Shown here in pieces: positions 1 through 63,106 of a DNA stretch of 64,000 nt; within the stretch, counting starts at the first letter, position 1; each line of letters begins with the position of its first letter. Location of the stretch: assembly GCA_000165345.1 (NCBI GenBank), contig CM000433.1, forward strand, positions 672,001 to 736,000, in the 5' to 3' direction. The position numbers were made by a program, and so were the translations under genes. The notes below the pieces were generated by a model that worked only from the letters and a program-made list of their open reading frames with translations, made no database searches and had not been told where the DNA came from.

Positions 1-3000
1 ATGGTCAGTTTATTTGTACTTGTATGGGAATTTTGAGGGAGATGAAACAAGATTCAAAATTTCAGTCCAAAAATTTCCAAGTACTATTCTTATCATGTAA
101 TAAGGATAAAGCTGATTATTATGTTTCTAAGTTCGAGTCAATTTTTGGTGTGAATCAAATAGTTTCTGGTTTGAAAGGAAAGACTCCAGTCCAAATTGAA
201 CAAGAATTAAAATCCAAGAGTATAATAGTTTCAGATATTGAAACATGGGATAATCATGTTGGAAAAAAACTTACAAAGATACGTGATCTTGTTAAGAAAT
301 TAAAACTTTTGGTTATTGATGGTATTGAGTTTATTAATAGCAATAATTCAAATGGCTCTGTAATAGAATCAGCTATTTCCAGAATTAGATATATTATTAC
401 TCCTTTGAATTTGAAAATAAGAATATTTGCATATTCAAAGTGTATTTCTAATGCAAATGAGGTTTCTGAATGGCTGGGAATATCAAGGGAGAATGTATTT
501 TCTTTTGATCAAAATATATTCAATGAAACTATTAATAAGAAAGTTATTGCCTTTGATTCTTATTATCGTTCAAGCCGTTTTCAAATGATGTTAAAGTATC
601 TCAAAGATAATATCATTTTGCAGTTAATTAATCAACCTAAAGAAGAAAAGAAAACTTTAATAATATTTGTTTTGGATTATGAATTCTGTTTAAGCTTGGC
701 TAATGAGCTATCTTTATTTATTGTCTCAGAAAGTGATCAACAAGAAGAAGGTGTTACTGAATATAATTCTTTATTAAAATTCTCAATACACAATGGAATA
801 GGTTTTTTGTATAAAAATCAGTCATTTAAGGAAAAAGAGTATATTTTATCACAATTTAATGATGAAAAGATAAATATTATCATAGCTTGTGAAGATATGA
901 AGAATTCTATTACTCTCAAATTTGATTATGTTGTTGTAATGGATACAAAGAAAATTGATTATGATGATAATAAGGGTTCGCTCATTAATTCAAAAATACG
1001 TAAAACTATTGATTATTCACAATTTGATATACATCAAATGCTAAGTAGATGCAGAAATCAAATGGATCATTATTCCAACTTTATTTTATTGTGTTCTTCA
1101 AATAAACAAGAGTTTTATGAATATACAATTAATAATTCTTTGCCTTTAGAATCAAATATTGATTTTGGTATCATTGATTGCTTAAATACAGAAATTGCTT
1201 TGAAGACTATTAAAACAAAACAAGATACTATAGATTGGATTACTTGGACATTATTTTATAGAAGAATTTCAAAGGTAAGTTGTTTATTTAACTATTAAAG
1301 CGTATATAAATATATATTTATATATGAAGATTCTATATGTGACTATTATTAAAAAAGATATATTATTAATGGGAAAATTAATAATTTGGATTTATTTCAT
1401 TTATTTGATGATGACAATTTGTTTTAATAAATGACAATTTTATATGATTGTAATATTTTTTATATACATATTCGTACTGTCTGAGAGTTATATTCAATTT
1501 ATTAAATTTAAAATAAATCCAATAAAAATTAATAATATACCAACTGTTGTCATATTTTGACACAAATTATTAATAGTTGCATGATCTTGGCGCCAATTTG
1601 GTAATATATATTTATATACATTTAATTAATATAAAAACTTTTTTAATTCACATTTCTTTTTTTATAGAATCCAACTTATTATGGACTAACAGGAAATACA
1701 AGCGTTCATATTTCAGATTACTTATCTGAATATTTGGAGAGCCTTTTGGATTCATTATCTGAAGCAAAATGTATACAAGTTGATGGTAAAGAAAATGATG
1801 AAGATGGTGATAATGAAAAAGAGGAAGAAAATGAAGATGATAATGAAGGAGATGATACGGTGGTATCGCTAAATTTGAGCTTAATTTCAGCATTTTATAA
1901 TTTGAAAGTTTCTACTATTGAATTTATTAGTAAGAATTTGAGCGAAGATGATACCTATGATAGTCTAATTCAGTTAATTTCGATGGTTCCTCAATTACAA
2001 GAAGAATGTCTGATAAGAAAGGGGGATAACCAGATTTTAGATCAATTATGTAGGGATCTGAACTTAAATTTAATGTCAAATACTGAAAGTTCTAAGTCAT
2101 CATCATCTTCAAATTACCAACATAGAAGCTTAACTTCAAGAAAGATCCAAATACTTTTGAATTCATATATAAAACGTCACAAATTTATATTGAGCAGACC
2201 ATTGGTTAAAAATGATTTGATAGATATATTGCGATTTGTAATGGATTTATTATTTGCAATGGTTGATATATCAAGTTCAAATGGCTGGATTAATACTTGT
2301 TTAAGAATAATGGAACTTTCACAAATGTTAGTTCAAGCAATAAGTAACCCAGTAAATGATAAATTAATGCAACTTTCAATGTTAATGAATAAAGATCGAA
2401 TTCGAATATTTAAGGAAAGTGGCGTTACTGATATTTATGATTTAATTAATATGAACGATGATGATAGAGATGAATTATTAACAGAAAAACTTTCTTTAAG
2501 TGAAAAGGAAATATCTCAAATTGCTCAAGTTTGTAATGATTTCCCAATTATAGAAACTGAATATACTATTCTTGGCTGTAATGATTTGAATGAAAAAAAT
2601 AAAAGAAGAAGATTAGATTCAGATAATTCCACTAATACAAAAAATGGAGAAACTCAAAGATTATTTGAATGTAATCCTGAATCTGAACTAACTTTATCTA
2701 TTGATATATCAAGAGATTTTAGTTCTAATGAAGAAGAAGATAATGATTTGAAAAATCAAAATGATATTAAAGATCAAGAAATTTATCCATGTATCGTTAA
2801 GAATTTGAATTATTATCCTCTTGAAAAGGAAGAGAATTGGTGGGTTATCTTAATAAAAATTGCTGTTCCAAATTCATCAAAGGAAAATAAGGATGATGAA
2901 AATGAAGATGAAATTTTGTCTATAAGAAGAATACAACTTAATAAAATAAGTAATCAAGTATTGTTAAAGTTTAACTCAATTGAAGATTCTGGTATGATTA

Positions 3001-3086
3001 CAAACTATAAGTTACTGGTTATTTGTGATAGCTACATTGGATGTGACCAAGAATTTATGTTTTCTATCAAGACAGTAGAATCTTAA
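1..3086 (+). CDS. BRR2: Brr2/SNRNP200-type spliceosomal RNA helicase, C-terminal part (second cassette with Sec63 domain), 5'-partial. Two exons, 1..1274 and 1668..3086, joined across a GTAAGT...TTTATAG intron (1275..1667).
   Basis: The frame is open from base 1, so the gene continues upstream of the window. The translation aligns along its whole length with the C-terminus of Brr2. Matching stretches include DWITWTLFYRRISK followed, after the intron, by NPTYYGLTGNTSVHISDYLSEYLESLLDSLSEAKCIQV, then MELSQMLVQA, EENWWVIL and YIGCDQEFMFSIKTVES. The last of these matches the human end YMGCDQEYKFSVDVKEA. The donor GTAAGT at 1275 and the acceptor TTTATAG ending at 1667 restore the frame exactly. Confidence 0.8.
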
Positions 3087-5991: not shown

Positions 5992-6978
5992 TTAGTATTT
6001 TCTAAGACCACCCATAAAGTTTCGTGGATCTGGTATATTTCCATTAAATTCAGCATTTGAAAAATCGAATCCTGGATTCTGTTTTACATATATAATATAA
6101 ATATTTTAAATAATATTTATTAATTATTTATTTATTTATTTTGTTTAACTTACCTCTCTTTGGAATCTTTCTAACATCATTTGCTTTTTCATATTTTCCT
6201 GTAATAATTTTTCAATTTAATATGAATAGTTAAATCAATTATTAAGTAGAGAAGGGAAAGATAATTAACTCACAATATCAATGGAATTCAAAGAATTTTC
6301 ATTACTTGCAATTACTGAATTCCAAACAGATCCTTTTCTCATCTTTGATAGTTGTACAATGAGTTCATTGTTTTCTGAATAATTTGGGAAAAAATATGGA
6401 AAATAATAAGGTAATGACAATGGTTTAATATTAATTCAGTTATTTTATATTAAAAACAAAAATTAAAGAAAAGAAATCAAATAAACTTACCAATATACCA
6501 TAATGATTCTGAAGTATCAATTGTATCAAAGAGAGTATCCTAATAAATGTGAATTGAATTAATAGAAAAAAGTTAAAGTTAGGTATTAAAATCATGAAAA
6601 GATATCTTAATGATAATACTTTCTTTATTTTAAACTTTTCAACTTACATCAAAAATATCATAGTTGGTAGATTTATTCTGTATTTTCAGCTTATTACACA
6701 TTATCTTTACAGATAAATCTTCTTTATTCATTTTATTTTTACTATTTATATCTTTCCCTGAATTTAAATATACATTTTCTACTGTAAAATATAGAATAAC
6801 TTCGTCTAAATTTTGCTCCCAAGTATATTTTAATCTTCCTATTATAGAAAGAAAGTGGATAATACGATAAATTTAGGTTTTTGATTAATTTCAGTTTACA
6901 CGTAAAATTGCATGCCAAACATATATAAATTAGCAACTTACCAATATCATCAAAACATGGAGCCCGTATTGATTTCAT
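5992..6978 (-). CDS. NudC/CS-domain protein of about 169 aa in six exons: join(6978..6942, 6838..6648, 6539..6491, 6374..6274, 6198..6154, 6078..5992), minus strand.
   Basis: I spliced this by hand across five GTAAGT/GTGAGT donors (seen as ACTTAC or ACTCAC on the plus strand) and YAG acceptors, and the phases close correctly. The joined product is MKSIRAPCFDDI|GRLKYTWEQNLDEVILYFTVENVYLNSGKD...|DTLFDTIDTSESLWYI|ENNELIVQLSKMRKGSVWNSVIAS...|ENMKKQMMLERFQRE|NPGFDFSNAEFNGNIPDPRNFMGGLRKY*. It aligns with the human NUDC core: [46 protein letters not shown] and ILKKFMDQHPEMDFSKAKFN. A canonical E2F site lies just upstream. Confidence 0.7.
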
Positions 6979-7120
6979 AATTGTATAAAATATAAATCCT
7001 AATTATATACTTTTTTCCTGAATCTTGTTCACAATTTATTAACTATTTAAACTTTCAATAATAAATTAAGCAATGTGGCTGTGCAAATTAATTAAAAAAA
7101 ATAATTTTTTTGTGAGAATG

Positions 7121-7133
7121 TTTCCCGCCAAAA
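7121..7133. promoter_or_regulatory. Canonical E2F-type site TTTCCCGCCAAAA in the bidirectional promoter between the NudC-like gene (minus strand) and RTF1 (plus strand).
   Basis: The motif is an exact match and lies between divergent start codons at 6978 and 7213. Confidence 0.5.
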
Positions 7134-7212
7134 CTTCGGTCATTTACAAAATATATAAGAAAAAATAAATAAGAGAATAAAAAAATATCAACAAAGGAGA
7201 ATATTTGACAGA

Positions 7213-9333
7213 ATGGACGATAGTTCAAAGAAAGTGGACGATATTGAGGTCTTAGATTTATTAAGAAAATCAAGAAATAGAGTATTGAAAGATTCAGATG
7301 AAAAAAATATTGTTGATAATGAAATGGAAAATGAAGATATGGATATAGATGAAGACGAAGAGGAGGAAGAAGAAGAAGAGGAGGAAGAAGATGAAGAAGA
7401 AGAGGAAAAGTTAGAAATGACAAGCGATTCAGATTCTGCGCAAAGTGATGAAAGACCAGAATTTGAACGTGAAGCGGAATTAGCAAAAGAATACGAAGAC
7501 GAAGCTCAGGCTAAAAGAAAGTACGAGCTATTATACAAAAATAAGAGGAGTCCTTCAAATAAGCAGGATTCTGCATTAATGAAATTACGTAATGCAAGAC
7601 AGAGAAAAATTAAAGGAATGAGACTTACACCATCAGAAGATGAAGAAGACAGTGAAGAAGAAGAATATCAGGGTAAAGATTCCGACGAAAATGATAATAC
7701 AGATAGTGAAGACGATGATGGAGATTATTATGGAGAATATGATAGTAGACATCAAAAAACTGATAAAATTAGTAAATCCAAAAGAAAATTAAGACATTCT
7801 GAATCAGATTCTGAAGAATATGATGATGATAATAACAATTATGAACGATTAAAATCAAAAGGACAAAAAAGATCTAGAAGAAATTCCTCTAATATTCAAA
7901 AAAGTAACCTATTTGATGATGATAATCAAAATCAAGAAAGAATGTTAAGAAGATGTGAAAAAGTACTTGAATCAATTAATTTAAAGCTAATGAAGTCTGT
8001 ACATTTAACAAAAGATAGAATAGAGTTCATGTTAGAACATCCAAAGTTTACTGAATATTTATGTGGGAGCTACGTAAAAGTACCAATTATTAATCCATCC
8101 ACAAATAGTGAGATTTTCTTAACATGTGAAGTTTTTGATTCTCATATTAGTGATGAAAATCAATGTGTATTAACTTTACAGAGAGGAGGATCTAAGAAAG
8201 AGTGGGGAATTGAAAGTATTTCAAACAATATATTCACAAATGAAGATTTACTTGAATGGAAAGCAATGATTAAAGAATTCTATTCCAATGATCCTGATTA
8301 TATTTTATCATTACCAAGAATACTACAAAAAAAAGCCAGGGATTTAAATAATTTTCAATATGGAGATGACGATATTGCTCTTATTCTTGAAAGAAAACAA
8401 AAGAAAGCAAGTACCCAATCTTTATCAGGTAAAACCTTAATTGAAACAAGAACTAACTTACAAACGCAAATTAAACAATTAGAAGCTCAGCTTAAAAATA
8501 TTGGATTGGATAATATTGTTAGAAAATCTAAACTTGCTAAAATTGATCAATTACAACAAGAATTAGAGCAAACTATTAATCAAATTGAGAAACTTAAATT
8601 ACAAAAAGAAATGATCCATCCTGATAAATCTCTTAGAATCACATCTTCTAGATATATTGGAGGAGTACAAGGTAAAGGATCTGGTACTATGCCTACATTA
8701 TTTAATAAGTCAAACTTAAGTGAAAATAATATGAATAATGGAATCACTACAGCTTCTAAAACTAACAAAACTTGCAATTCTTTATATAAACTTATTTTTG
8801 ATCCAACATCTCCAAAAAATTATTCTAAAAATAACCTAGGTTCTGGCGCCATTTCCAATAATGACTATAATCATGCAAAATCTCAATTATTTTCATCAAA
8901 TTCTAATCAAAACACAGAAATTCATTTTGGGAGAAGAGAATGTAGACCTTCTGTTATGTGGGAAACAAAGAGAAATAAGCCGAATACAAGACAACCAATA
9001 AATAGTAAAATTGAATCTTCTGATATTCAAGAAATTTCATTAACACCATCTGACCAAAATAACAATAAACCATCTGATTATGTTATTATTCAAGACATTG
9101 AAACATCTAAAAATTTTTCCTTAGAAACAGAAGAAATTATTTCTGATTTTAAAGATTTCTTTTCAAAAATTGACTTGAATCTTATAGTATCAGCCAGAAA
9201 TAACTCTCCTGTTTGTGTTCCTCCTATATATGATAGTTTCTGGAATCCTTCAGAATTCAATGCTATATCAAAAAACAATAAAGATCTCAACTCCGAATTT
9301 CAAGAACTTGTTAAGTTAGTAACAAATCCTTAG
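7213..9333 (+). CDS. RTF1: Rtf1-like Paf1-complex protein with a Plus3 domain. The N-terminus is an acidic, low-complexity D/E/S-rich region.
   Basis: The segment MLEHPKFTEYLCGSYVKVPIINPSTNSEIFLTCEVFDSHISDENQCVLTLQRGGSKKEWGIESISNNIFTNEDLLEWKAMIKE matches the Rtf1 Plus3 domain pattern ([51 protein letters not shown]). It is a single 706-aa ORF. Confidence 0.7.
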   Translation: MDDSSKKVDDIEVLDLLRKSRNRVLKDSDEKNIVDNEMENEDMDIDEDEEEEEEEEEEEDEEEEEKLEMTSDSDSAQSDERPEFEREAELAKEYEDEAQAKRKYELLYKNKRSPSNKQDSALMKLRNARQRKIKGMRLTPSEDEEDSEEEEYQGKDSDENDNTDSEDDDGDYYGEYDSRHQKTDKISKSKRKLRHSESDSEEYDDDNNNYERLKSKGQKRSRRNSSNIQKSNLFDDDNQNQERMLRRCEKVLESINLKLMKSVHLTKDRIEFMLEHPKFTEYLCGSYVKVPIINPSTNSEIFLTCEVFDSHISDENQCVLTLQRGGSKKEWGIESISNNIFTNEDLLEWKAMIKEFYSNDPDYILSLPRILQKKARDLNNFQYGDDDIALILERKQKKASTQSLSGKTLIETRTNLQTQIKQLEAQLKNIGLDNIVRKSKLAKIDQLQQELEQTINQIEKLKLQKEMIHPDKSLRITSSRYIGGVQGKGSGTMPTLFNKSNLSENNMNNGITTASKTNKTCNSLYKLIFDPTSPKNYSKNNLGSGAISNNDYNHAKSQLFSSNSNQNTEIHFGRRECRPSVMWETKRNKPNTRQPINSKIESSDIQEISLTPSDQNNNKPSDYVIIQDIETSKNFSLETEEIISDFKDFFSKIDLNLIVSARNNSPVCVPPIYDSFWNPSEFNAISKNNKDLNSEFQELVKLVTNP

Positions 9334-17327: not shown

Positions 17328-20051
17328 ATGAAAAAAAATTATCATTTTAAAATAATAACGAATTTGTTGTTAATATTATTTTTATATAAGATTGAAGTTT
17401 TTGAATCTGTTGAAATTGAAGGCATACAACTAATAGGAAAGAAAAATAATGGAATTACATCATTCTATAATATCAGATATGGTGTAGCAAATCGTTTTCA
17501 ACCACCCAAATTATTATCAATTACTGAAGCTGTAATTATGGACGAGGATAGAACATCCAAAATTCCAAAAAGCTATGATTTATCAACAAATAAAGGCTCA
17601 TCATGTCCTCAAGACTGCTCAGATACTCAGCAAACAAGTCAAAAGACTTTTCTATGTAGAGGAACTGAGCCTGAAACTCAATCTGAGGCTTGCTTAACTT
17701 TGAGTGTATTTACAGCAACTAATCAGATTGAGGAAATATTGAGCCAGTTTTCTACTGTTGCAAAACATGTTTCTTCAAATAATACTCAAATTAATATGCT
17801 TTCAAGTGTAAATAATACTCTTATGAATAATCTTAATAAACAAAAATCAACCATATCTTCAATTGTACAAGCTAATATGTCATCTTTAAAGCCTGTCTAC
17901 GTTTTTATTCATGGTGGATTATACCTATTTGGATCTTCCAATTCTGAAACTAACTTTGGAGAAAAACTTGCAGAATCTGGAGCTGTAATTGTTACTATCA
18001 ATTATAGGCTTGGAATTCTTGGATGGTTAAGAACAAAAAATCTTTCATCTGGAAATATGGGATTTCTTGACCAAAGAATTGCTTTAGAATGGATTCACAA
18101 ATACATTGTAAATTTTGGAGGTGATCCTAATCGAATTATTCTTGCAGGACATAGTGCAGGAGCTAAATCAGTATTATGCCATTCAGTTACTGAAGAAAGT
18201 AATAAGTATTTCTCAGGTGTAATCATCCACTCTGGAGCTCTCTCTCAAAATGAAACTGCTCTTAAAGAGGCGGAAAATATGGGTGAAATGGCTGAAGCCA
18301 TTGCATCTGAAAAGTGTCTTGCAACTATATTAAGCTGTACAACTAAGCAATTATTGGAAATTCAAAAAGAGGTTAGAACACAAATAGTTCGATCTAATCC
18401 ATCCAAAGCTCTTCATTCTTGGTCTCCAATTGTTGATGGAGTTATTATCAAGGACTCTTGTAGAAATCTGGCATTATCTGGATCTATTCCTAAAAATATC
18501 AATGTAATTATCAGTACAACCAATTCAGAAGGTGTTCAATTCTTTAGATCATTTATTGCTTATTTACCAGCAATTTCAAGAGGTCTTGCTACTAGTAATT
18601 TTGCTTTTAGGTACCTAGTATCAAGAGTATTTGGCCCAAAAGCAGGAGAAGCTATGAAAATATATAGTAATAATAACTTTGCAAATTCTGCATCAATAGC
18701 TTCAGATTATGAAATATCTGATCCAAATTATGATTTGCAAAATAATACTAATATTAATCATGATAATTCTTCCTATGTTAATAATGAAACAATATCCAAT
18801 CCTATTGAAATTCAAAAAGAGGATAATGAAACTATGATTGGATTCAAAGCTGATGATATTAAATATGCAGATAAAGAAAATAATCAGATTGTTTCTAGTT
18901 CTGGATTTAATTTGTTCCAGGTTGGAAGAAATAGAGATGAAGAAAAGTGGAATGGTATAATTGATGATCCTGTGGCTTTAGCATATGCAAGAATGATTGG
19001 GGACTTTATATATAGTGTAAGTTTTTTTATTAAACAATATTTTATTCAAATTAATCCTTTATTTATTTCAGTGCCCAGCAAGAATGTTCATTAAGAAGCT
19101 ATCACAGTATAATCCTAATGTATATGGCTACTTTGTTAATAGTGGTTTTAAATGGACTGAAGGATTAAAGAAAGGATATGAAGTTAATAATAGTTCTTTT
19201 ATTTCTGGTAAGTTTTAAAGATTTCATTCATTTACATATTAATATCATTTCTCTTTTCAAAGAAATATTCCAAGCTCCCAAGTTTTCACTGAGAAATACT
19301 CCAAAAGGAGTAGTATGCCAAAACGACGATGTTGCCTGTAAAACTTATGTATATGATTGTAGCGATACCAGATTAGTTTGCCATATGGAAGATATGATTT
19401 GGTTATTCCAGACTTTTCCAAATAAATTGAATGATAATGTTGATCGAGTTTTTATTAATGAGCAGAATCTAGCTTTAACATTTTTCTCTCAATTAATTAA
19501 AAAGTCTTTGGGAGAAACTGAGACTCTTTCAAAAAAACAACAACAAATCTTCAGAAAGTCATCTTTCCCTGAATCTCTTGATATTTCTCCAGATGTTAAT
19601 TCTTGGGATTCATTTTCTGATGGAGGTAAGTCTAAATTATCTTTTTTTCCCCCTAAAAGAAAAAATCTTACAATTTGTAATTAATTTTATAGGTAAAATA
19701 CTTCAGCTTAATGGTAACAAGACTGAATTAGTTTCTGATTTCAAATCAGAAGAATGTGAGCTTTGGGAATGGAGAAATAATGACTTATCCATGACTTTCC
19801 ACCAACTAATTGATTCAAAGACTATTCCACAATCAAAGAATAATGTTGATAGTAATACCTTCACTGGTGTCAGCAGAAATGATGAGAATGAAAGTAGAAA
19901 TCTGAATATTAATCTGTTAGATGAAAACATTGAAAATCCTAATAGCAGCCTTTCAGATGATCAATTCAGTCAAATCTCAATCTTAACTCAAAATGATACA
20001 AAAAAAGATATTTCAGATAACTCCAATATTAATGGTAATGAGGAAATTTAA
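17328..20051 (+). CDS. Secreted type-B carboxylesterase/cholinesterase-family protein (alpha/beta hydrolase). Four exons: 17328..19016, 19072..19207, 19263..19625 and 19693..20051.
   Basis: There is an N-terminal signal-peptide-like segment, MKKNYHFKIITNLLLILFLYKIEVFES. Family motifs are SEACLTLSVF (EDCLYLNVW), PVYVFIHGGLYLFGS (oxyanion HGG), GNMGFLDQRIALEWIHKYIVNFGGDPNRIILAGHSAGA (nucleophile elbow G-H-S-A-G), TNSEGV (acyl-pocket Glu), and in exon 2 CPARMF...VYGYFVNSGFKWTEGLKKGYEV. Introns are GTAAGT..TTTCAG, GTAAGT..CAAAG and GTAAGT..TTTTATAG, and the phases close. Confidence 0.7.
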
Positions 20052-35508: not shown

Positions 35509-35571
35509 TATAACCATCATTAAGACGTGTTAATAAATTATTATTATTTTTTTAATTCAGGCCAAAATTAC

Positions 35572-35690
35572 ACCGTACTGATGTGATATCTCGTACCAAT
35601 CTTTCGCCTTTTACTAAAGATTGCCGTGTCACATCAGCTTGGTAGTTATTACCAGGTCATAATATTTGGGGAGTTTCTACACTCCGACAA
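35572..35690 (+). ncRNA. U5: U5 spliceosomal snRNA. The ends are approximate.
   Basis: 35596..35625 reads AATCTTTCGCCTTTTACTAAAGATTGCCGTG, matching the invariant U5 loop-1 region (human AUCUUUCGCCUUUUACUAAAGAUUUCCGUG). The closing stem CAATCTTT/AAAGATTG leaves the 11-nt loop CGCCUUUUACU. An outer stem pairs CTGATGTGA (35578..35586) with TCACATCAG (35629..35637). A Sm-like AUAAUAUUUGG follows at 35659..35669, then a 3' hairpin GGAGU-UUCUAC-ACUCC (35670..35685). The local segment is GC-rich against an AT-rich background. Confidence 0.7.
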
Positions 35691-36005: not shown

Positions 36006-36153
36006 TTATTGTAGCCCTAGAGGGCCCCAGAAATTGCCATTAATCTATTAGAGAATAGAATAATAGAAGTTTAAATTGGTGTAGTTTTCAACTAGCAGAA
36101 ATCGCACATCCGCTGAGCGTCATTTGTAACGATATCTCCCCTTGCGTAAGGCT
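36006..36153 (-). ncRNA. U4: U4 spliceosomal snRNA. The ends are approximate.
   Basis: The minus strand reads AGCCUUACGCAAGGGGAGAUAUCGUUACAAAUGACGCUCAGCGGAUGUGCGAUUUCUGCUAGUUGAAAACUACACCAAUU...UAAUGGCAAUUUCUGGGGCCCUCUAGGGCUACAAU. Human U4 is AGCUUUGCGCAGUGGCAGUAUCGUAGCCAAUGAGG...CGCGAUUAUUGCUAAUUGAAAACUUUUCCCAAU...GGCAAUUUUUGACAGUCUCUACGGAGACUGG. The shared parts are the 5' AGC..UGCGCA, a k-turn-like AAUGA 5' stem-loop, the U6-pairing UGCUAnUUGAAAAC, a Sm site AAUUUCUGG and a terminal hairpin. The length of about 148 nt is close to human U4 at 145 nt. Confidence 0.65.
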
Positions 36154-59100: not shown

Positions 59101-59315
59101 TTCAGTTGAAATATCAGTCCTAGCTTTTCTTTATCGTTTTCACATCTTATTAGAGTCATACTTAGTGGATAAGAGTCCAGAATGCAACATTCCCCTTCTC
59201 TATTACTACTTATCTCCTCATTTTCGTGGCATGTTAGAATATCTAGAGCCTCCTCTAGTTCCAGTCGCATTCTGTTTACATTTTTATCCAACTCAAGCTC
59301 CTCCCTATCACTCAT
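53106..59315 (-). CDS. Large alpha-glucan (starch/amylopectin) synthase fusion of 2069 aa. Domain order is an N-terminal region of about 600 aa of unknown function, a CBM48-like module, a GH13 alpha-amylase-family domain, a GT5 glycogen/starch-synthase catalytic domain, and an S/N-rich C-terminal tail.
   Basis: The CBM48 signature is MNIYLVGDFNDWNKTSHPM. GH13 is marked by YNCLLLTGLLEHY...FTPYSKYGTLEEFKDLMDDCHSRGIAVIVDFNLTF and GIDGFRFTVPDLS (region II, GFRxD-like). GT5 is marked by LRIAMFSWESLYTHSVGGVSPHVSQLSASLVRLGHEVHLFTR, ILTLHSTEYGRCGN, ICVSGVFAEE and C-terminally GKPVVATTSGGPRDFLTPNVDGYLVEP (GT-B fold). Confidence 0.8.
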   Translation of the reverse strand: MSDREELELDKNVNRMRLELEEALDILTCHENEEISSNREGECCILDSYPLSMTLIRCENDKEKLGLIFQLNEFSRMVKGSYWMVLEDNKDPRNLCMLEFFNYSDGVFRNKMFEVIVDKNEREILQNYFSHSNSILNMNGGNKSEISNEKWMMTTLKRRRDIENSRNNLGLAFCNTFLKESNEKIRSFDLSSLAFMVKFSEVSNISELINNVETLYEDFRLNKMEESFLTVFSFSIENRLDGQARFEDELKKLSLSNSKKDAYMIHIFTNPTDYAMVTSTYNWSSYISTLKDLALGEARTEFMTQKLIYNSLENFEDLNIFRTEDSERDLEIKENMMGGENLDGKSTIATTLNYYSTDSCKLVDSANGFSSTDLDSVTTSINSSTENLTLSKKGSTLEGLDENKELEVIDDIEIFEDEEVIGFEEDPLLVSEWSNLRFWESAVVGASDSVAISNIRKKNLLYSNSTINSNNNQNEKLTDNQEIPVIQESVKEEEFYECREMMFDTHTLKAKLAKSVWGGATCSDRNCMQCFALLHAHAQTNTDKDEKTMENERIWCREGFTKFCEVYKSMGVVELKRKSELGNGNRAWLIREFIGDELTDQVFCYGLNRRRRSIKGGLRTMNIYLVGDFNDWNKTSHPMQLETENICSMNQEIYENYPSIPHFMKSRVYSIILDENKLESFLSCSPKANSISFKIRIVTSKADGFTEGHMAEVNNSMGAVSSQELETYRLLSYSRSLTTSGIKDSTENALMNCNFYLESQKEHDGLRNRDLKYPLPRCVLKPRLGGNLKQNKDNIFDSNGKEYQIPVTSIVKGLVTNFRQSPLYIYEANIAFSSKGEFGTFASFKEKVLPRISRGGYNCLLLTGLLEHYQSFSNSQYPFNYFTPYSKYGTLEEFKDLMDDCHSRGIAVIVDFNLTFADITNSNSMLQPCDREVNNNLSNLQDIIDIDEINMCSGSEASNGNMSREGSFIFGNGNSGTNIVRIDELFLDDSVVDLYESFMLTNLNTFNPSFFKHTPDVISPLFAYNKSYSRLNLGYIPMLAQIFSSLHYLLTHLGIDGFRFTVPDLSEEQEKYSYISSVLALINDTIHTIKPFAITIANELLLRENKDKACSELAVPLEYGGMGFDYIWNTSICSSLQDIILKSPSSLNIKKDIIDELLPHEDKMRNSNKKIRILYKNREKQNISSRGDNDNGNNNSYSDMGESDLHTVEFVSRNLYGIESLEMKTVTQNPLRIAMFSWESLYTHSVGGVSPHVSQLSASLVRLGHEVHLFTRATTSAYIIKVHDGVLYHECPFQLNSDFVTEIINMCNSFVYYMQRWEDGLTKVPDHPMLNNVKNGYRFNICHCHDWLAAPVLTSLRRIGNNNRTTILTLHSTEYGRCGNQSYGGQSGRISDIEREGSHTADRLICVSGVFAEEVCRLFGINRNKIKVIFNGINCKTFDSVAMDDAGEVKRQYGIGPLEPTFLCVARMALQKGVDLLIEAVPGILKYRNDTKFIIVGDGHQKDEIVRRSHQLGIYNSIRFVGKKSGDDVIRLYKACDAVVVPSRNEPFGIVVLEGWTAGKPVVATTSGGPRDFLTPNVDGYLVEPCKDSIAWGCCEILKNFDHSRWMGSRGRVKAAYSFSWDSIARATSFLYFEQCNVLDVTPSLILKPNSPIILQAFGENALHHHMMVFDGFDKSVFALKQLKLLILTTMAFAKNGVFQSMGSEFGNPDSFDLPRPNNNMDNSKMCCKWDLADNKNLKFKHLEFFNTLLIRLEKFLSWIAKNNIQDYGVNYNYLSPLTCGSEGELGKNGLTSACYSKSISPLTKGTSTSLIPSEISPASTFSKRVLAKKEAIIKKLEESSGDNTSPVDNESVIYLDSTPQSNGKEGSKSIQNIYSRAKSLGKHSKDSLKILTTDSLYNSSSNINVVLCHELDKVMVIERNNCVFVFNFSEKYYNDYGFGISSELPQSLIIDTQDERFGGDKKYHITGSFCSTSIKSEQGFKIFSPNSEPSNINSIVNNKFPNNFQHESPYRFVNTKSLKQTVFLNMSPFSAYILAPSNLVQDFPCETVGDKLFSQNIDSFVDSIGLFC

Positions 59316-60206
59316 CTTACACTCCCCTTTTTGTGAGAGTATTTATTATGTGATATGATCTTTATTCTTTGAGGTTTTAGATTCTTGGATTTAACTTATT
59401 TTTGTCTTTTTTGTTTTCAATTATCTTCTTTTAATATCCAAGTTAATTTATAAGTTTCATAAATACAAAACTTGTTTATTATAATTTCTTTTCCCCTTCT
59501 TATTTGGACTTTCACTTCAAGCTTAATTATCAATTATTTATTTATTTTAAATATTTAACCAACTCGAAAAAATGACAATAATAACTGGAAAACTGCTTTA
59601 TATTTATATACAAAATGCTAATTATTGGATTCCAAATATTGCCAATAATAATGAGATAACTTTCTTGATATCTTCTTTAGTTAAAGTCTTATTTTTACTC
59701 TATATAAATTATTTTGAAAACTCAATACTTAGAACTTACTAATAATCAATTATTAATAAAATAATAAATTATAATTGTAATCAATGAATAAATACGATCC
59801 AAGAGCTGACGACTTTTACCAATTTCTTCTGAATTTGTAAATTAAGATTGAGAAAGTGATCCTAACAATTCTATTTTCTCACTTAATTATATTATATTAC
59901 TATCCTTAATACTGTAGAAAAGTAATACTATGAATTAAAAAGAAACTTTGATCCTTCTTATATCGCTTATGAAATATTTACTTCAATTTATTCCGAAATC
60001 CAAATTGTTGGTGTCCTTCCAAAGCAGAAGTGGTTGTGATAGTTCCAGTTGTATATTTAATAACTGTAAATTTTACTGAATAAAGCTTTTGAAAAAAATA
60101 TATATATTTAAAAAATCCAAATCCACACAAAGCAAAATGCTGATTTCTCTTCAGCTATTTAAAGCACATATATAATGAAAGCCCAGTATAGAATTATATA
60201 TATAAG

Positions 60207-60232
60207 TATATATATATATATATATATATATA
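60207..60232. repeat. (TA)13 dinucleotide microsatellite in an intergenic region.
   Basis: TATATATATATATATATATATATATA, seen directly. Confidence 0.8.
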
Positions 60233-62147
60233 AATCTTTATATGAAAAACTTGAATTGAATTATAAAATGAATTTGAACTGAATTAGTGAGATTCCAAAT
60301 CGTACCCAAAGTAACTCAAAAGCAGAAATGAGAAGAAAAAAAAATTAGAGGGAAATTATTCGCTCTAAACCTTTTTTTCTATTATTCTGCTTATATAGTC
60401 CTTGGTTATTGCCTAAATTGCACCCTTTTTCTAACAGGTCAGGTTTACTTGTTTTATATCTTTTTCTTCGTGTAAATACAATTCCTAAATCTTATAAAAA
60501 TTGGAATAAGCTTAGCTTTGTCAATCTTTACTGAAGAAAAAAAATATACTGGTTACTTTTGTCTTATTTTTTCCTTCTAACCTTTTTCCACGCGAATTCG
60601 AGAGTAGAAAGATTCTGCTTGCAATCAGAAATGTGCAACTCTTTTCTTCTTTCCTATTAGTATATATATATTTTTTTGGAGCCTATTAACTAATTATTTA
60701 AAAAAAATTGTAATCTGTAATTAGATGATTTGAAATATTCGGCTTTTCAGAAATATTATCCAGGTTGAATTTCCCTTGTATCTCTAATCTAGGACTTGTC
60801 TTGATATTTTAACTTTTGAAATAAGAAAAAAAGAGGATTAGGAATTCACACCTTAAAGAATATCTGTTATATTTATTATTAATAAATATATAAAATATTT
60901 ATATTTTAATGCATGTATATACACCAATATATTTTCTATATACACATATACATAAAAAAAATGTATATAGTATATTAACTATATAATAATGGTTCCAGTA
61001 AATTGAGTTGAACCAACCTTGAAAAACTTTGGCTGAATTTTCAGAAATAGATTTTGTGACATATGATGTTAATATTTAGAGTTAATGCATTAATCCCAAT
61101 ATATTCTTTGATTTTCTTTTATATATACAATAGAATGGATAAATTAATGTTTATTTATTGTAATATTCTTTTGCTTCTTTGACTTTTAAGCAATTAATAA
61201 GAATACTATAACTAAGTTCAATTTCTTTTATTTAATTTCCAACTGAAATTTGTGTGTGAATTTTTCGATATATATTACCTTTATGAACTGTTAACTTATT
61301 AGTTAGTTTAAAAAAAAAAATGCTGCACAATACTATAAGAACCTCGAAAACTTTAAACTCGGAAAGTAATTAAATAATTTAATTTTACTCTGACCCTCTT
61401 CCTTCAAGCTCGAGCGAAGATTTACTTAAATAATTTGATTTGCACACTTCTTGTTGCTCGAAAATAATTTTATTTTCACAATCAAATAATAAACACAGAC
61501 TTTTAACACGGATTAATTAAAAAAATGAATGAATTGTCGAAACTACTCAAAATACTAAAATTTAGTATGAAAATACTCCTTCATGTAATTTTTGCTTTTT
61601 TTTCTTTTTTTACCTTTTTTTCTCACATATAATTTTTTCCCCCTTATATTAAGCCCTAACCTAATTATTAATTAAATACTACCCGCTCCCACATTCGACC
61701 GCCTATATAGTATTCATTTTTTTAGTGCAAGTGTGCATTGTAAATTTTGAGAAAGAAAAATAAATAAATATATATTTCATATATATTTACAAATTACAAA
61801 AAATACAAAATATAAAGTTGTTTACAATTAATTAAATTTACGGTAGATTCCCAAATTAATTTTAAATATTTCCCTATTCTCATTCCCTATCCTTTTCCTC
61901 ACATCGAATTTCACTCTACTTGTTTCTTTTCATCACGTTTAATAACAATCTACATACTATCACCCCCCTTATACACTCAAATGCGCCCCCCCGTCGGTCC
62001 GGATATGGGGCTCTATATTATCCCATCCACCTATCTCCCCCATTTTATTCCCACCTTTCTACACTCCCCCCACCTTTTACCCCCTATACAATTTTTTGTT
62101 AAACTACCGCCTTTTTATTTTAAAAAAATTACACGCCCCCTTGCCAC

Positions 62148-63026: not shown

Positions 63027-63098
63027 TCCGAGTTAGTATAGTGGTTAGTATATCCGCCTGTCACGCGGATGACCCGGGTTCAATTCCCGGACTTGGAG
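63027..63098 (+). tRNA. tRNA-Asp: tRNA-Asp (anticodon GUC).
   Basis: TCCGAGTTAGTATAGTGGTTAGTATATCCGCCTGTCACGCGGATGACCCGGGTTCAATTCCCGGACTTGGAG. The acceptor stem pairs TCCGAGT with ACTTGGA (one G-U pair). The D-arm is AGTATAGTGGTTAGTAT, the anticodon loop is CTGTCAC (GTC), and the T-arm is CCGGGTTCAATTCCCGG. It is almost identical to canonical eukaryotic tRNA-Asp. A T-run follows directly. Confidence 0.85.
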
Positions 63099-63106
63099 CT
63101 TTTTTT
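63099..63106 (+). terminator. RNA polymerase III terminator T-tract downstream of tRNA-Asp.
   Basis: CTTTTTTT follows the discriminator base directly. Confidence 0.5.

Follow-up and report, generated by a model that had tools for sequence, protein, structure and literature searches.

A 987-bp interval (5992..6978) of the window, by which we mean the whole 64,000-nucleotide stretch of DNA analyzed here, raises a question of a kind that lists of open reading frames (ORFs) are poorly suited to answer: does it hold a genuine protein-coding gene interrupted by five introns, and if so, what does that gene encode, and how did it come to be so finely divided among neighbors that are mostly intronless? 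The window is AT-rich (28% GC) and belongs to chromosome 5 of Cryptosporidium parvum. The longest ORFs that overlap the interval encode 78 aa (minus strand) and 68 aa (plus strand), in keeping with a preliminary description, made from the letters alone, which had found no ORF reaching 100 aa there and had instead spliced a six-exon gene by hand.

Six minus-strand exons do join in frame across the interval, giving a 510-nt coding sequence of 169 codons plus a stop; the exon count, the length of the product and the 37-nt first exon are each as originally given. Exon 1 (6942..6978, 37 nt), which opens with the ATG at 6978-6976 and encodes MKSIRAPCFDDI and the first base of the codon for G13, is followed by intron 1 (6839..6941, 103 nt, phase 1, GTAAGT...TAG) and by exon 2 (6648..6838, 191 nt), which carries the first part of the CS domain (YTWEQNLDEV...). 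Intron 2 (6540..6647, 108 nt, phase 0, GTAAGT...TAG), which holds in-frame stops when read through, leads to the short exon 3 (6491..6539, 49 nt), and intron 3 (6375..6490, 116 nt, phase 1, GTAAGT...CAG) to exon 4 (6274..6374, 101 nt), where the CS domain ends. Beyond intron 4 (6199..6273, 75 nt, phase 0, GTGAGT...CAG), exon 5 (6154..6198, 45 nt) contributes ENMKKQMMLERFQRE, the C-terminal helix; beyond intron 5 (6079..6153, 75 nt, phase 0, GTAAGT...CAG, 8% GC), exon 6 (5992..6078, 87 nt including the TAA stop at 5994-5992) encodes NPGFDFSNAEFNGNIPDPRNFMGGLRKY and holds an invariant PGFDF motif. A first exon of 37–40 nt is found in three other Cryptosporidium species as well.

All five introns are GT–AG, and reading through any of them meets in-frame stops or shifts the frame. 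Their donors (four GTAAGT, one GTGAGT) are those expected from the hand-made model, and their acceptors are TAG or CAG; that model was right about their shortness but not about their range, which is 75–116 nt and not 50–110 nt. GTAAGT begins 84% of introns in the Cryptosporidium genus (PMC2483917). With strong GTAAGT donors, lengths not far from the roughly 60–100 nt expected of this class and a GC content of 8–25%, the five introns are, on their sequence features, of the U2 type and carry splice signals typical of Cryptosporidium.

Neither the gene nor its exact product is new, both being present in current C. parvum annotations, so the preliminary description was right to call the locus unannotated only with respect to its own ORF list. 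The gene is cgd5_3000 (locus suffix 5g3000), and exact look-up finds the 169-aa protein deposited four times at NCBI (QOY41732.1, KAL5368731.1, WKS77955.1, and WRK32445.1), in C. parvum under the name “CS domain containing protein”. Three assemblies of C. parvum chromosome 5 annotate a span of 987 bp, equal to 5992..6978, and 6986 of the 6987 nt around the gene are identical to the IOWA-ATCC assembly (CP044418.1), in which positions ~699,804-700,790 correspond to 5992-6978 of the window. The IOWA-ATCC annotation carries the exact product, and its introns overall are stated to be 100% supported by RNA-seq (PMC8744675). The gene lies between a divergently oriented Plus-3-domain gene on one side and a PUF/NOP9 gene on the other. 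The top matches in a protein search are all Cryptosporidium orthologs, and a full-text literature search for “cgd5_3000” returned no paper, the gene appearing only in a supplementary divergence table (PMC4637869).

What kind of protein is it? The spliced product matches the Pfam CS domain (PF04969) above the gathering score, at residues 16–103 (46.6 bits against a cutoff of 21.3, E=6.9e-12) and over profile positions 2–78 of 78, which bears out the domain that the preliminary description had predicted and proposed to check. Among solved structures, the best match by sequence is mouse NUDCD2 (2rh0; E=8e-12, 48.5 bits), and it includes the C-terminal LERFQ(K/R)ENPGFDFSxAE segment; BLASTP against Takifugu NUDCD2 gives 33% identity (E=2e-20) over residues 2–155 of 169. 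When 27 NUDCD2 sequences from Cryptosporidium, other protists, and vertebrates are aligned, W19, Q21, K103, W110, E136, F138, E141, and P143–F147 are invariant. An AlphaFold2 model (mean pLDDT 80.7) predicts a beta-sandwich with eight strands between residues 6 and 103, a C-terminal helix at 123–141, and a low-confidence Asn/Lys-rich loop at residues ~35–50. Searched against the PDB with Foldseek, this model retrieves NudC-family structures at ranks 1–9, 11, and 13 (3qor, 2cr0, 1wfi, 2o30, and 2rh0) and also matches the CS domains of p23, Sgt1, and Shq1, as well as sHSPs.

This family membership leaves room for a rival assignment: the protein could instead be orthologous to canonical NudC, which regulates dynein/LIS1 and bears a coiled coil at its N-terminus. 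NudC CS domains do head the structural matches and by fold slightly outscore the NUDCD2 crystal structure, and it was the NudC core domain to which the product had first been aligned. Nevertheless, we find orthology to canonical NudC quite improbable: the protein is only 169 aa long, with ~5–15 residues before the CS domain and thus no N-terminal extension or coiled coil; by sequence, NudC structures reach at most 23 bits (E=6e-4 or worse) as compared to 48.5 bits for NUDCD2; and the alignment to NUDCD2 extends along the whole of the C-terminal LERFQxENPGFDFSxAE tail. Its size, within the about 150–170 aa expected of NUDCD2, and its content of a CS domain only point the same way, and intron positions in common with Takifugu NUDCD2 lend supplementary support. 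Sequence and C-terminal motif thus support a NUDCD2-type member of the NudC family: the initial CS/NudC assignment stands, although the branch is NUDCD2 (NudC-like 2) rather than canonical NudC.

A further possibility concerns the transcript rather than the family. Some other splice pattern might make the main product, whether by use of another last acceptor, by skipping of exon 4 or by reading through intron 3, and models of this kind, of 189, 133, or 95 aa, sit in public records. The partial 95-aa model EAZ51301.1 of C. parvum Iowa II runs on through part of intron 3; in C. hominis, the TU502_2012 model (133 aa) skips exon 4 and PPS96717.1 (189 aa) takes the wrong last acceptor, the very one that a length-maximizing exon chain also picks. 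The deposited models of C. canis (174 aa) and C. felis (112 aa) are mis-spliced as well. However, the alternative models lose or scramble the invariant ERFQxENPGFDFSxAE segment or the last CS strands, whereas the six-exon model equals the RNA-seq-based IOWA-ATCC annotation and is the sole pattern conserved across species. The latter point emerges from exact threading of protein records from Cryptosporidium sp. chipmunk genotype I, C. ryanae, and C. serpentis (gastric clade), each onto the DNA of its own species: the orthologous locus, whose comparison had been suggested at the outset, shows the same six exons and five introns, at the same codons and in the same phases, in all three. That one of the alternative forms is the main product therefore seems to us very improbable, and we retain the six-exon pattern.

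The choice of model has consequences beyond this locus. In a published comparison of C. parvum with C. hominis, cgd5_3000 is tabulated with an identity of 0.82 and a dN of 0.10 (PMC4637869 supplement). As the correct proteins of the two species differ at only 3 of 169 residues, the tabulated divergence is an artefact of the gene models. With at least five deposited orthologs mis-spliced, the locus illustrates how genes built of small exons are missed by ORF scans and mis-modeled in public records.

How unusual is such a gene in its genome? The published C. parvum annotation counts 688 introns among 3,865 genes whose coding sequences average 1,783 bp; 10.8% of genes have introns, the intron-bearing genes have 2–10 exons with a mean of 2.6, and the mean intron is 99 bp long with 22% GC (PMC4637869). 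From these figures the genome-wide density is ~0.1 introns per kb of coding sequence, while cgd5_3000, with five introns in 0.51 kb, has ~10 per kb, about 100-fold the genome-wide value. Its intron density is extreme and belongs to the upper tail, yet its six exons fall inside the published 2–10 exon range. The suggestion that the genome might be richer in introns than its long ORFs imply is accordingly only mildly true, at ~10.8% of genes (PMC4637869).

Within the window, the contrast with mostly intronless neighbors is real. Exon-chain scans found no other gene with at least three introns, no other small-exon genes hidden in the ORF-free gaps, and two other intron-bearing genes, each with a single intron. 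One is a Brr2/SNRNP200-like helicase gene (24-3086, plus strand), whose same-frame ORFs 24-1298 and 1983-3086 are joined by an intron at 1275-1667. This intron (393 nt, GTAAGT...TAG; junction ...FYRRISK|NPTYYGL...) is about four times the genome mean and contains a TTGGCGCCAA palindrome at 1587; the full 2391-aa helicase product is annotated in one C. parvum set and a 367-aa C-terminal piece in two. The other gene (19178-19625 and 19693-20051, plus strand) consists of two overlapping ORFs in different frames, bridged by a 67-nt phase-1 GTAAGT...TAG intron; the spliced product of 19178-20051 has 268 aa and a hydrophobic, signal-peptide-like N-terminus (MKLIIVLLFLVSF...).

Where, then, did the five introns come from? 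We mapped intron positions in outgroups by exact threading, using three intron-bearing outgroup genes represented by computational gene models. The oomycete Lagenidium giganteum has four introns, three of which match Cryptosporidium introns 1, 2, and 3 in alignment column and phase, while the fourth, in phase 0, lies six codons upstream of Cryptosporidium intron 4. Takifugu NUDCD2 has three coding introns, all coincident in position and phase with Cryptosporidium introns 2, 3, and 5, and a separate BLASTP alignment, locally free of gaps, reproduces these coincidences. Lagenidium, Takifugu, and four Cryptosporidium species all have an exon 3 of 49 nt. The Triparma ortholog has no intron position in common with Cryptosporidium, and intron 4, though conserved within Cryptosporidium, has no exact counterpart in Lagenidium, Takifugu, or Triparma.

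Since introns 1, 2, 3, and 5 are common to the oomycete and/or the vertebrate, four or more of the five can be judged, by position and phase, to be ancestral introns that were retained rather than newly gained, and would be older than the divergence of alveolates, stramenopiles, and animals. One could instead regard them as recent gains in the Cryptosporidium lineage, with the gene as an insertion hotspot; intron 4 without its exact counterpart, the lack of shared positions in Triparma, and the closest non-Cryptosporidium relative (P0010), whose gene is intronless, would all sit comfortably with that idea. It would, however, demand parallel insertion at four sites identical in codon and phase, when the chance that even three of the four Lagenidium introns fall at five given sites is ~5e-6, and it would leave the constant 49-nt exon 3 to coincidence, so that we give recent gain very little weight. 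Ancestry with retention is also what the preliminary description had offered as one of its two explanations, a gene family that keeps its introns, and it now has direct support from four of five positions and phases.

Retention itself could be a matter of chance, through escape from cDNA-mediated intron loss, or of selection. It is conceivable, though in our estimation unlikely, that selection kept the ancestral set essentially whole in the face of ~99% intron loss from the genome, for example because expression of the gene might depend on splicing or because regulated intron retention might tune the dosage of a co-chaperone. The introns were also considered as hosts of snoRNAs or other RNAs, a role that might have accounted for their being kept, but the idea was set aside, as Rfam matches at E<=10 amount to sub-threshold noise (e.g., 17.4 bits where the gathering score is 45). 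The persistence of four ancient introns in an intron-poor genome is of modest evolutionary interest and fits loss that proceeds gene by gene better than intron by intron.

The constraint on the coding parts of the gene can be read from the same species comparisons. Identity to C. parvum is higher in exons than in introns throughout, at 0.85 and 0.66 for chipmunk genotype I, 0.66 and 0.38 for C. ryanae, and 0.61 and 0.42 for C. serpentis. Intron lengths in the three species vary freely between 58 and 109 nt, with differences that are not multiples of three, and exon indels between Cryptosporidium species come in multiples of three only. The one comparison with unsaturated dS gives dN/dS = 0.13, and all four Cryptosporidium species keep the synteny around the gene. 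Between C. parvum and chipmunk genotype I, intron 1 reaches 80% identity, near that of the exons, as compared to 56–68% for the other introns; it was set aside as a candidate functional element, since it is not conserved in C. ryanae or C. serpentis (0.39). Intron 1 has no Rfam match.

How readily might such a chain of exons arise by accident? The entire window was scanned for exon chains under strict conditions (GT[AG]AGT donors, YAG acceptors, a coding sequence of at least 120 codons, and at least three introns), which yielded two chains. One is the NUDCD2-like gene; the second merely fuses an esterase ORF with its downstream ORFs and is not a compact many-exon gene. The same scan of the reversed sequence, as a control, found no chain. 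The six-exon gene is far beyond chance, conserved, and under purifying selection. That the locus is instead a pseudogene in decay, or short ORFs strung together by accident with no spliced gene behind them, a reading for which one could cite the lack of an ORF of at least 100 aa and the abundance of GT and AG dinucleotides in AT-rich DNA, is excluded by the frame, splice sites, and exon boundaries kept in four species, by the dN/dS and the far better conservation of exons, free of frame-breaking indels, by the significant CS domain match, and by the reversed-sequence control without a comparable chain.

Upstream of the conserved spliced gene, a 234-bp divergent intergenic region (6979..7212) separates cgd5_3000 from the Plus-3-domain gene (7213..9333, plus strand), and is presumed to be a promoter common to both. 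It contains an E2F-like TTTCCCGC site at 7121-7128. The E2F-like motif TTTSSCGC occurs six times in the window (3311, 7121, 12435, 20940, 24881, and 47777) against 0.51 expected, a count reached in none of 100 shuffles, and four of these sites are intergenic, the one at 7121-7128 among them.

The window further holds several features outside its protein-coding genes. A U5 snRNA gene (35570-35686, plus strand; Rfam 69.5 bits) and a U4 snRNA gene (36014-36153, minus strand; Rfam 95.9 bits), both above their gathering scores, place two spliceosomal snRNAs ~330 bp apart in a 1.17-kb gap that is otherwise ORF-free, and a tRNA-Asp (GTC) at 63027-63099 on the plus strand is found by both Rfam and ARAGORN. 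The 2.6-kb region 59315-61946, which has no ORF of at least 120 aa and no spliced chain above the reversed-sequence control, is long relative to the ~550-bp average intergenic region of the genome and may represent a non-coding RNA or a long UTR.

Taken together, we put a probability of about 90% on the following reading. The locus cgd5_3000 would be a functional, single-copy nuclear gene whose minus-strand transcript is spliced at five U2-type introns, four or more of them presumably ancestral introns that escaped loss while the genome shed nearly all others. Its 169-aa product would be the parasite ortholog of NUDCD2, with a p23/HSP20-like CS sandwich (residues ~16–103), a helix, and the ERFQxENPGFDFSxAE tail. 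Mammalian NudCL2/NUDCD2 is an Hsp90 co-chaperone that stabilizes LIS1, cohesin subunits, myosin-9, and RCC2 (PMC11443449), and by analogy the protein most likely serves as an Hsp90 co-chaperone in Cryptosporidium too, a step that we infer from the mammalian case. As a small co-chaperone, it would probably hand beta-propeller-like clients to Hsp90, stabilizing these (LIS1 and RCC1-like proteins) and others.

A side observation touches on these clients. The closest relative outside Cryptosporidium (43% identity) is encoded on a metagenome contig (ERZ781357 NODE_77, positions 1-2019), and its gene starts 9 bp downstream of a gene for an RCC1-like beta-propeller on the same strand. Considering that mammalian NudCL2 stabilizes RCC2 (PMC11443449), this adjacency may be meaningful, or it may be a coincidence.

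Finally, it is instructive to set the protein beside the systems it resembles. From the current C. parvum annotation of cgd5_3000 it does not differ at all, the protein being identical and the 987-bp span the same. With the Hsp90 co-chaperones p23 and Sgt1 it has in common the seven-stranded CS/HSP20-like sandwich (Foldseek ranks 10–21), but these share only 13–23% sequence identity with it and lack the C-terminal helix and PGFDF motif of the NudC family. Canonical NudC (human 3qor and 2cr0, mouse 1wfi, and E. cuniculi 2o30) has the same NudC-type CS fold, yet its similarity in sequence is much weaker, and it has roughly double the length, including a coiled-coil region at the N-terminus. Vertebrate NUDCD2 is a similarly small single-domain protein (157 vs. 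169 aa) with the same succession of CS sandwich, helix, and LERFQ(K/R)ENPGFDFSxAE tail. The two differ in that an Asn/Lys-rich insertion driven by AT content occupies residues ~35–50 of the Cryptosporidium protein, which also ends in IPDPRNFMGG, as do those of other protists, and it is for mammalian NUDCD2 only that Hsp90 co-chaperone activity and clients are known (PMC11443449).
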